A stretch of DNA of 49,036 bases from a virus (taxonomy: Duplodnaviria; Heunggongvirae; Uroviricota; Caudoviricetes). Shown in pieces: positions 39,001 through 42,000 of this stretch. The first letter of the stretch is position 1. Each line of letters starts with the position of its first letter. The stretch lies in IMG/VR virus record IMGVR_UViG_2718217787_000014. One strand, written 5' to 3'. The position numbers were made by a program.

Positions 39001-42000
39001 TTTTACCGCTGAACACAAAATTCGTGCACCCGGTCATCAGTTCGTCAGCTATGGATTTGGCCTGGCTCAGCGCGTATTTTTGCCCGTCGTTCTGCACCTG
39101 ATAATTCGCAAACGAGCATTTGCTGTGCAGAGGCTGGATGCCCGAACGATTCAGGATTTTTTCCACCCGCAACTGGTGATTCTGGCGGTTAATCTCCTCG
39201 CTGCGTTTTCGTCCTTCAGCAAGTTGCCATTCCCGCCACTCCTCCACCGTCCGGTACGGTGGAACCGACGCCTGTGGTGCAAGTCTGCGAATACGTTCAA
39301 GAACCCCGGCTGCCGCAATGTTTTTCATGCCACATCACCCCCTGAATCCCGGCGGAATTTCGGTATCCGGTTCAGAAATATGATTCACACAACGCTGGTT
39401 GTTCGTGCCGCTTACCGGGAGCAACCAGGGGTTTTCAAAATTCCGGTCCGGCCCAAAAAACGTCGTCGCTCGCTGAACAAATTCCGTTCCCGCTTTCCCG
39501 GTCGCCGCCAGGTATCTCGCGTAACGCCTCACACCATCCAGCATGGTCTCTGGTGGCACCCCCTCGCGCAATCTGGCCTTCCAGGCACTGAAAGCGGATT
39601 TCTTCGGGTTTGCCCCAGCACGCAACGGGTATTCCCGCCAGACCTGTTCGAACACATCCGGATAATCCACTCGTCCCACAGACTGCCCGGTGCTTTCCGG
39701 GACTACCCGATCGGCTTCCCGCTGAATGGCGGAATCGGCTTCAGGCTGCTGCAGTTGGTGTGATTGCTCCGACCCTGCGGTCATCACCTGCTGCACAGCG
39801 CCCGAATCGGCTTCCGGTGTCGTGCCTGCTGGCTGACCAGGATTGACGGTCTGAACATCCCCTGCCTGGTTCGTGGTGTTTTTTTTGCCATGAACCATAG
39901 TGTTTTTGTCCTGTTCCTGTTCTTTCTCCTGCTCCTGTTCCTGTTCTTGGCTTCGAAGCCCCTTAAAAGCCCCTTCGAAGCCCCTTACCGAATTTCGGCT
40001 ATTATTCCGCCTCACATCCAGATGGAAATCCGTTTTATATCTGTCGTAAAACACTGACAGAAAAGCGTTTTCAGGTAATGATGCATACTCATTCCTGACA
40101 CCTGCACAACGGTTATCGCCAGGCTTCAACGTTTCCCCAACCTGCCAGGCTGCCATTTCATGGACCCAGACCATCTCTGCATCATGGTCATAGCTACAAA
40201 AACCAGCTTCAACAGCCCTTTTAAGCCCCTTTGAAGCCCCTTCCAGACCAAGCCCGGTTTCATGAGCAAGGTATAAAACTGGCAGGTAATACAAACCCAG
40301 CATATTTGCGTGAGGGGATGTCATCAGGTAAAAAGCAACAACTTGCGCTTCTGCACCCGCCTTTCTAAGTTCTCTCCCCGTTTCTCCCAGCCAGAATCGC
40401 GGAGAAACTTTTGCGTAATCACGCATGGCTACCTCATCTGGTGCCGAACCTTCCTCCGGATATAATCTGTGGTTCCCAATCGACAGAACCAGAGGAGGTT
40501 CGACATGTATTTTTTGAAAAGCCTTTATCAGGCTCATGTATTAAATGTTGCAGCAACAAACCGCTGGTGTAACAGCCCCGAAATGCTCCCGGATTACAGA
40601 GCCTGGCTGCGCGCCGAAACATACCTTCGTCTCGACATATTGATTAGCGAACTTCAAAAAGAGACTGCATCCATTCATAACCTTCAGGGTATCGACGCTG
40701 TTCGCATTCTGGTATCGCGCCATAGTGCTCTCTCAATAATTGAAGTGCGTCATCTCTCTTTTTCTGAACTGATTTTCTTGCTTCAACCAGCTCTGGAATC
40801 AGCGAATATCCCGCCGGAAGTGATCCAATACCCACCTCATGTTGACGAGCAGTTACAAGATGTGCCATACAACCAGCGTGCTGGATTGACTCCCTGCTCA
40901 GAGGCTGAATGGGATCACTCTCTGCTGAAGAAATACCAAGATTTGTATAATCCTCAATAAGCCCGGCACACGCTTCTGCATCAGCCAGCTTTATTCTGGT
41001 TTCCTTGCGCTGTTCTCTGGCTGACAAACGCCAGAGCAGCGCATTAGCTTTATGTATCAACCACTCTGCCAGCTCCACATCAGATAAACCGCCACGCCAG
41101 ATGTGCGGACTGTTTTCGTAAACGCTCAGTGTCAATTTTTTGTCATTACTCATATTTATTACCCAATTAATGCACAGCCAGAGTGTTTCCTGCCGGGCCA
41201 CCACGATTCATCTGATCGAACAGAACGATCGCTGATGCAACGAAATCATCAATATCTTTCACCAGCCGTTCCTTCGTCTCTACCAACTCCCGAAAATAAG
41301 CGGAACTGTGGCTGCGCATTCGGGCCACCAGCGGAGGCGGCATCGCTTTTTCGATCGCTGGTAACAACGCCTGAATTTTTTTAACCGCATCAGGAGTGTC
41401 TTTCTCCACCCAGCGGAAAATTTTCTGAGTATTGCGAGCCATGGCTTCCGGATGGCTGTCGTCATACAGTTCCGGGAACGTCATTCCCAGCTCGAAATAC
41501 GCTTTGGTAATTTTCGCAGCCGGTACTTTTTCGCCGTCCGGATGCGCCCAGGCATTCATCGCCATGCGGATGTGTTCATGCTTGATTTTCATGAATCAAC
41601 TCCGGCGCATTTGATGTGTTAACCTTACATCCAACAGGTAAACCGTCGGTTGGGTTAGGATAAATATCTGGGCGGATTTCATGCGGGGTAACTTCCCACT
41701 TCATTAGTTGGCATAACGGAATTACCTGCTTTGGGGGAACGCCAAAGCTAAACCATTGCCAAACAGTCTGTTGAGCGACCCCCATATAACGACCTATTTC
41801 AGCCTGAGTGTATTTCTGCCTAATTTTTTCGCGAGTGCTATCTAGCATTTTGCCCTCCTCTAAAAACTATAAGCAAAGCCTACAATAAAAAACTGTATGC
41901 AATCAACAGTTTTTTATTGTGATGCTTTTAACAGTATTTACCTGTAAAATTGAATAATGATGAGCGCCCTAGAAGTATCTATGTACAGAATCAGCAAGCT

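Follow-up and report, generated by a model that had tools for sequence, protein, structure and literature searches.

Do short direct repeats inside a phage replication gene mark the origin at which the phage starts to replicate, or are they a by-product of the protein encoded there? The question is raised by a 49,036-bp stretch of DNA from a virus of the class Caudoviricetes (IMG/VR virus record IMGVR_UViG_2718217787_000014), referred to here in its full length as the window. A previous examination, made without database searches (the sequence-only reading), had pointed to five to six copies of a short motif in two clusters, spaced by 10-11 bp and adjoining a simple-sequence tract, within what appeared to be a replication initiator gene. 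By analogy with phage lambda, where the origin lies inside gene O, these were suggested to be origin iterons bound by the encoded initiator. The analysis described here makes it probable that the repeats are indeed iterons of a prophage replication origin, located inside the initiator gene and bound by its product, on support that is comparative or predictive throughout.

Repeats within the gene and the level at which they are conserved

The exact 9-mer AAGCCCCTT (AAGGGGCTT in the sense of the gene) occurs five times in the window, compared with approximately 0.24 copies expected from base composition, and all five copies are found within one minus-strand gene, in two clusters about 245 bp apart. 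In a window-wide count, no other 9-mer exceeds three copies per 300 nt. Read on the plus strand, cluster B contains the units GAAGCCCCTT at 39955, AAAGCCCCTT at 39966 and GAAGCCCCTT at 39977, and cluster A contains TAAGCCCCTT at 40222 and GAAGCCCCTT at 40233; a sixth, degenerate copy, ACAGCCCTT (40212-40220), precedes the first of the cluster A copies by 11 bp. The number of copies noted previously is therefore confirmed as five exact and one degenerate, and repeat finders place the spacing at exactly 11 bp in both clusters (TRF period 11). The adjoining simple-sequence tract is also real, with a period of 6 and encoding QEQEQEQEKEQEQ on the minus strand; cluster B is positioned in a disordered linker of the protein, immediately before this glutamine- and glutamate-encoding (QE) tract. 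A looser search of the window for a 10-mer with one mismatch was not significant (9 found versus 6.3 expected). The repeat signal is thus one of exact, clustered copies of a short motif, held in helical phase inside an initiator gene.

A period of 11 bp shifts the reading frame by one position per copy, so that it is the DNA that is repeated and not the peptide. Successive copies in cluster A read E-G-A / K-G-L / R-A-V and those in cluster B read R-G-F / E-G-A / K-G-L, in each case in three frames.

Homologues were collected by tblastn of phage records and by two collection scans with an alignment of the N-terminal domain, giving 143 loci; the codon alignment contained 68 non-redundant homologues, with gene G + C contents of 39-68%. 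They come from enterobacterial, Acinetobacter, Burkholderia/Ralstonia and other proteobacterial phages and prophages, along with some Acidobacteriota and other metagenome-assembled genomes (MAGs), and their hosts include Gamma-, Beta- and Alphaproteobacteria as well as Acidobacteriota. Nearly all homologues, down to approximately 46% identity, carry the same 9-mer (with at most one mismatch) at the same two places: a pair at gene nt ~185/196, and, immediately ahead of the QE tract, an array of one to eight copies at nt ~415-550. The spacing is 11 bp, occasionally 12, and the second group, cluster B, was found in 66 of the 68 non-redundant homologues. The density of the exact motif is 5.26/kb at gene nt 150-620 and 0.044/kb in the rest of the same loci, a 120-fold difference. 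Absence of the repeats from homologous replication genes, named at the outset as a result that would speak against origin iterons, is thus contradicted. The pre-linker array is much longer in one Acidobacteriota MAG (locus L118), where eight phased AAGG(G/C)CCTT-type units occupy gene nt 470-555.

Within the alignment, the codons of cluster A are nearly invariant: E62 is encoded by GAA in 58/58 homologues, G63 by GGG in 61/63, K66 by AAG in 61/61, and L68 by CTT in 58/65. Mean normalized synonymous entropy drops to 0.18 over the codons of cluster A and to 0.11 over those of cluster B, compared with 0.86 (minimum 0.59) for a background of 58 other conserved codons (Mann-Whitney, p = 3e-5 for cluster A and 1e-4 for cluster B). 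Cluster B has the opposite orientation to cluster A in most homologues, with its position and 11-bp phase unchanged, and the encoded peptide differs accordingly: EAPSKPL in most homologues, EGASKGL in some relatives, and RGFEGAFKGL in the window. The motif has palindromic arms (AAG...CTT) around a central triplet that is nearly always GGG or CCC, with GCC and GGC as less common forms, so a flip between strands needs only GGG-to-CCC changes; a true inversion of the DNA was considered and rejected, because this change is enough.

Could the repeats nevertheless be ordinary coding repeats, with a duplicated peptide beside a low-complexity QE run, or a product of chance? Both clusters do encode EGASKGL in some homologues, such as that of Klebsiella phage L002, and the QE tract itself behaves as a pure protein feature. 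Against this, the copies in the window specify different peptides (RGF/EGA/KGL), five exact copies far exceed the chance expectation given above, and the inverted versions encode a different peptide. The use of three frames, synonymous sites that are frozen across the whole range of G + C content, and the inverted copies exclude a purely protein-level explanation, which was the other adverse outcome foreseen by the sequence-only reading, and we find coding repeats or chance hardly credible. On the comparative evidence, AAGGGGCTT is a DNA-level element that is kept regardless of frame, synonymous codon choice and orientation.

Synonymous constraint alone cannot separate DNA from RNA, and the sense-strand AAGGGG resembles the core of a Shine-Dalgarno sequence, so that pause sites of this type, or RNA structure, might be proposed to explain the constraint at the level of mRNA. 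The comparative results as a whole also argue against this explanation. In most homologues cluster B lies on the opposite strand, so that the mRNA contains AAGCCCCUU, and other subfamilies use the unrelated motifs GAAAGGGTT, GAAGCCTT, ATGTCACG and AACGGTATCGAG at the same positions and in 11-12-bp phase. Furthermore, a phase of 11 bp fits one face of the double helix and not the spacing of codons or ribosomes. Action through mRNA is very improbable on these grounds.

The encoded protein and its relationship with the repeats

The identification of the gene as a replication initiator gene is supported by its PHROG profiles (1701, ‘DnaD-like helicase loader’, and 3729, ‘replication initiation protein’), by a model that resembles winged-helix replisome organisers, and by the adjoining gene for a helicase loader. 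In RefSeq the product is a ‘hypothetical protein’, present in genomes of Escherichia coli O157:H7 with a 100% match to the window. The start codon is an internal Met at window position 40426 (MRDY...), which is used by RefSeq, the PHROG profiles and all homologues; the 37-codon extension upstream of it (window 40427-40537) is probably not translated. A single-sequence search of 1.84 billion representatives (50% identity clusters) returned 4,083 related clusters at E <= 1e-3. The N-terminal domain has no sequence relative in Pfam, NCBIfam or the PDB, with Pfam giving only noise at E <= 10.

AlphaFold2, run with an input of 53 sequences, modelled residues 4-143 with confidence (pLDDT 86.8, pTM 0.80) and gave the N-terminal domain the topology H-strand-H-H-strand-strand of a winged helix, with residues 144-159, encoded by cluster B, predicted to be disordered (pLDDT < 50). 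Searching viral models with Foldseek produced matches named Replisome organizer and Phage replisome organiser N-terminal domain. The Pfam model for the latter has no sequence match in the initiator, and there is no PDB relative; on its predicted fold, the protein is grouped with the replisome-organiser winged-helix proteins, at a distance below sequence-detection thresholds. The third helix of a winged-helix motif is usually the recognition helix. From the topology of the model, the helix formed by residues 60-73 is thus the presumptive recognition helix, and its codons contain cluster A. Overall, the initiator can be divided into a predicted DNA-binding domain at its N-terminus, a linker predicted to be disordered, and a putative C-terminal module that recruits the loader.

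The order of genes, initiator followed by helicase loader, agrees with that of the replisome organisers of the SPP1 G38P type. The loader gene matches Pfam IstB_IS21 (E 3.9e-19), the Bac_DnaA ATPase (E 3e-8) and PHROG 50, ‘DnaC-like helicase loader’. Two other labels for the initiator were rejected. Several phage records name it DnaT or primosomal protein I, but there is no full-length match to the DnaT equivalog; the DnaT-like match (NF002770) covers the last 24 residues only, with 17.8 bits against a cut-off of 201. Some GenBank homologues are labelled ‘DNA replication protein O’, but there is no sequence match to the lambda O family (Pfam Phage_rep_O).

The sequence of the repeat co-varies with the DNA-binding domain of the initiator, as seen in four domain-repeat pairs. 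N-terminal domains of the EGASKGL type are accompanied by AAGGGGCTT; proteins of the ERVSKGF type (Klebsiella, Kluyvera and others) have two copies of GAAAGGGTT at nt 175/186 and two more at 408/419; and proteins of the (E/K)AFxEAF type have GAAGCCTT in a 12-bp phase. The initiators of Escherichia phages Tritos and Evi (L146:1999-3069 and L147:1997-3067), which have their C-terminal module in common with the window gene and an unrelated N-terminal domain, contain ATGTCACG at nt 137/158 and 407/418(/430), with the second array directly before a low-complexity acidic linker, TDKDTDKDTD. In distant subfamilies the layout is kept and the motif changes together with the helix at residues 60-73, and some of them carry the pre-linker array only. 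For example, a Clostridia MAG (L145, gene nt 412-467) has five perfect 11-bp AACGGTATCGAG units before a QD linker, without a matching pair in the helix-coding region.

In the genes around the initiator there is no such correspondence. The downstream partner is a DnaC-like loader in the window and in the Klebsiella phages and a primase/helicase in Fraca and CharmingMan, and upstream genes differ in the Acinetobacter and Ralstonia phages. As judged from these comparisons, the repeat tracks the N-terminal domain, and not the C-terminal module, the neighbouring genes or the host. This bears on the possibility that the repeats are bound by a host factor or by another phage protein, for example one of the DUF1627, YdaT-like or ECs1072-family neighbours. 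Several uncharacterized DNA-binding-like genes are located nearby; however, the motif follows the N-domain subfamily while the neighbours change, and a single host factor would have to act in hosts that span Gamma-, Beta- and Alphaproteobacteria and Acidobacteriota. A binder other than the initiator is therefore distinctly unlikely.

The case for an origin inside the initiator gene

The conservation of the repeats, their co-variation with the N-terminal domain, and the predicted winged helix support the suggestion that they are origin iterons bound by the encoded initiator, although binding and origin function are both inferred. The best reading of the comparisons is an intragenic origin of the type seen with lambda O and SPP1 G38P, in a family for which there is no Pfam model. 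In such a scheme, the initiator would be made by transcription from the early (cro/YdaT-side) operon, and its winged-helix domain would occupy the iterons, five to six in number, along a single face of the DNA. The ~245 bp that separate the clusters could be looped or wrapped through protein-protein contacts, and the AT-rich stretch next to cluster B would be destabilized and opened. The C-terminal module, beyond the flexible QE linker, would then bring the DnaC-like loader, and host DnaB with it, to the opened DNA. Ori-lambda with O and SPP1 oriL with gp38 are known to operate in this manner (PMC7466680, PMC6316719). Binding inside the transcription unit may also give autoregulation, which is compatible with a role as origin.

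A search for an AT-rich unwinding element had been proposed as a check on the origin, and a conserved AT-rich stretch does adjoin cluster B. Situated some 40 bp from cluster B in the interval between the clusters, it has a G + C content of 35-40% and a nearest-neighbour dG of -47.6, compared with a mean of -55.8 (standard deviation 3.8). A dip in G + C content of about -0.10 is found at the same relative position in the average of 57 homologues. The check is only partly borne out, as the stretch is moderate in character and partly driven by the peptide, and the evidence for a selected unwinding element is suggestive, not strong. A second AT-rich locality, just after the QE tract (39867-39897), holds an imperfect 12-pair hairpin (TGGTTCGTGGTG T8 GCCATGAACCA) with a T-run; it occurs in the window lineage only and not in the family average, and could be a second candidate unwinding or structural element.

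Several points weigh against an origin at this site. The arrangement is unlike that of ori-lambda, with two separated clusters, sites of 9 bp, and the AT-rich element between the clusters. This element is only moderately AT-rich, in part as a result of an F/Y/K/N-rich peptide: within the AT-rich zone, the G + C content is 0.35-0.37 at codon positions 1+2 and approximately 0.50-0.55 at position 3, the latter against 0.62. No DnaA boxes were found within ~2 kb of the initiator gene; the window has two TTWTNCACA matches, at 28232 and 37379, which is no more than chance. Binding to the iterons could serve autoregulation besides, or instead of, initiation. Finally, the prophage may be defective, in which case this copy of the origin need not fire. 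An IS66-family element, ISEc8 (tnpA, tnpB, transposase), interrupts a DUF977 gene that is located three genes downstream of the initiator (L001:1012-3875, from the same prophage in E. coli O157:H7 PV15-279; roughly 34900-37780 in the window), which indicates that the prophage is at least partly degraded.

Autoregulation could also be the main function. In this case, the initiator-bound repeats would act as an operator or roadblock that limits expression of the initiator and the DnaC-like gene, and the true origin would be elsewhere. The same DNA-level conservation and co-variation would be expected, the sites are within a transcribed gene and upstream of the loader gene, and the AT-rich element is only moderate. 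On the other hand, the window has no other repeat array or exact copy of the motif elsewhere, and the 5-kb homologous loci contain very few exact copies outside this region. The position at a domain linker and the adjoining AT-rich stretch also match intragenic origins that have been defined experimentally (PMC7466680, PMC6316719). A mainly autoregulatory function is rather unlikely, and the two roles are not mutually exclusive.

Two phage systems provide the closest parallels to the proposed origin, and both have been established by experiment: ori-lambda lies in the middle of gene O and has iterons and an AT-rich tract (PMC7466680), and SPP1 oriL is within gene 38 and is bound by gp38 (PMC6316719). 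Like lambda O and ori-lambda, including the 933W/P27 Stx variants, the window would have its origin in the initiator gene near the boundary of the N- and C-terminal domains, with repeated initiator sites and an AT-rich tract, domains that are exchangeable modules, and a loader gene that follows (PMC7466680). The differences lie in the details. The window sites are 9 bp long in an 11-bp phase, in clusters of two to three plus three, whereas lambda has a contiguous set of four to six 19-bp inverted repeats; the initiator is unrelated to Phage_rep_O in sequence; and a DnaC-like AAA+ loader takes the place of lambda P as the partner. Iterons and a partner of the lambda O type were rejected for the window on the separated 9-bp units and a partner that is DnaC/IstB-like. 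Of the lambda analogy drawn by the sequence-only reading, the intragenic iteron origin is supported, but the protein is not a homologue of lambda O.

With SPP1 G38P and oriL, the window has in common a predicted winged-helix N-terminal domain, a loader gene that follows, and direct repeats with a candidate AT-rich unwinding element in the initiator's own gene (PMC6316719). In its modelled structure it is also similar to the winged-helix proteins named ‘phage replisome organiser N-terminal’. Unlike G38P, it has no Pfam match, its family occurs in Proteobacteria and other Gram-negative hosts, and its C-terminal module has a DnaT-like tail; the sequence of the repeat and the two-cluster layout are specific to this family. 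The initiators of Tritos and Evi share with the window a repeat pair in the N-terminal domain and a second array before an acidic linker, followed by the C-terminal module at 92% nucleotide identity, and differ in an unrelated N-terminal domain with its own repeat. On sequence comparison, this difference is the specificity swap that is expected of initiator-origin pairs.

Plasmid iterons are usually 17-22 bp long and outside the rep gene, and the Rep proteins contain winged helices in tandem. The initiator showed no sequence similarity to plasmid Rep proteins of the winged-helix RepA/RepE/Pi type. Plasmid records searched for a minimal replicon based on this initiator gave no independent support. 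The only small ‘plasmid’ with a homologous initiator, NZ_CP069825.1 (L148; ‘plasmid unnamed2’ of Klebsiella pneumoniae in PLSDB), was rejected as a plasmid replicon. It is a 32-kb linear record with chromosomal genes, including one for a cytosine permease, and a prophage that carries the initiator, and is probably a chromosomal contig that was mis-assigned.

The QE tract was also considered as part of the origin. Its peptide is conserved across the whole superfamily with variable length, but its Q/E codons have a normalized synonymous entropy of 0.84, against 0.86 for the background, and it was rejected as a DNA element because its synonymous sites vary like the background. The purine-only character of the sense strand follows from the CAR/GAR codons. 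The ~92% nucleotide identity to other phages starts exactly at this tract, which is best read as a flexible, acidic, low-complexity protein linker and a junction for mosaic exchange or recombination. Thus the tract noted beside the repeats exists, but as a protein linker without DNA-level constraint and not as part of the origin.

The overlap of cluster A with the codons of the presumptive recognition helix means that the sequence of the helix and its binding site are partly the same DNA. More tentatively, and with doubt outweighing belief, this leads to the suggestion that the origin is partly self-referential, with the cluster A iterons being codons of the helix that binds them, and that the plan of two clusters and a linker might be a general rule. 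The basis for such a rule is that the layout recurs in Tritos and Evi, with an unrelated N-terminal domain and a swappable C-terminal module. If the suggestion is right, a change in the helix would alter the binding site simultaneously, coupling the evolution of initiator specificity to that of the origin, and in some homologues cluster B would be a copy of the helix segment placed in an unconstrained linker. Such a design rule would let origins be read from sequence in thousands of unannotated prophage initiators.

No description of these repeats or of an origin of this module type was found in the searchable literature, with an earlier account possible in the main review of phage replication modules, by Weigel and Seitz (2006). 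A full-text search for AAGGGGCTT gave nothing relevant among the top-ranked papers, and two papers on replication regions of Stx phages make no mention of iterons or origins for this module. Less ordinary aspects are the location of an iteron pair in recognition-helix codons, the free flips of orientation in the linker array, and the use of the same plan with an unrelated N-terminal domain. The gene is annotated as ‘hypothetical protein’ or ‘DNA-binding protein’ in RefSeq, and the family includes initiators of Stx-converting phages (POCJ13, 75/02 Stx and phiSTEC1589-Stx1c) and of Klebsiella, Acinetobacter, Burkholderia and Ralstonia phages. An initiator, a 9-bp motif and a probable origin provide a testable model of replication for lambdoid prophages that are without lambda O and P. 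They also yield a simple rule by which origins and specificity groups can be located from sequence; this is relevant to incompatibility and cross-activation among co-resident O157 prophages. The locus is, in addition, a clean natural example of overlapping constraints from protein coding and DNA-binding sites.

Coordinates and neighbouring features

Table 1. Positions of the repeats, the initiator gene and associated features in the window.
Feature	Position	Strand	Remarks
Candidate iteron cluster A	40212..40242	-	Exact AAGGGGCTT at 40234-40242 and 40223-40231; degenerate third copy at 40212-40220; 11-bp phase
Candidate iteron cluster B	39955..39986	-	Exact AAGGGGCTT at 39978-39986, 39967-39975 and 39956-39964; 11-bp phase
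Replication initiator gene	39335..40426	-	363 aa; longest open reading frame to 40537; RefSeq WP_001205823.1; PHROG 1701/3729
Coding region of predicted N-terminal winged-helix domain	39998..40426	-	aa 1-143
DNA encoding helix aa 60-73, LEGASKGLKRAVEAG	40208..40249	-	Third winged-helix helix (model); contains cluster A
C-terminal module	39337..39906	-	~92% nucleotide identity to phages Tritos, Evi and others
DnaC-like AAA+ helicase loader gene	38582..39328	-	Directly downstream of initiator gene
Candidate DNA unwinding element	40026..40065	.	Least stable 40-bp duplex of the gene, within AT-rich zone ~39990-40090
QE tract, (CAR GAR)n encoding QEQEQEQEKEQEQ	39911..39949	-	Period-6 (TCCTGT) repeat at 39909-39946

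A scan for promoters and terminators gave nothing above shuffled sequences. A different short repeat is present in the linker of the shared C-terminal module, where ATCGGCTTC (GAAGCCGAT in the sense of the gene) occurs three times, at 39710-39718, 39734-39742 and 39806-39814. The spacings of 24 and 72 nt are multiples of 3 and the copies encode PEADS/EAD, so this is an in-frame peptide repeat, and it is also found in phages Tritos and Evi.

Upstream of the initiator gene, two fully overlapping antisense open reading frames are each claimed by a different database. That on the plus strand (40505-40960) matches the NCBIfam ‘ECs1072 family phage-associated protein’ (E 2e-30) and is annotated in RefSeq. 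The minus-strand frame (40644-41153), which is not annotated in RefSeq, runs in the same direction as the early operon and has a full-length match to phrog_8304 (E 4e-120).

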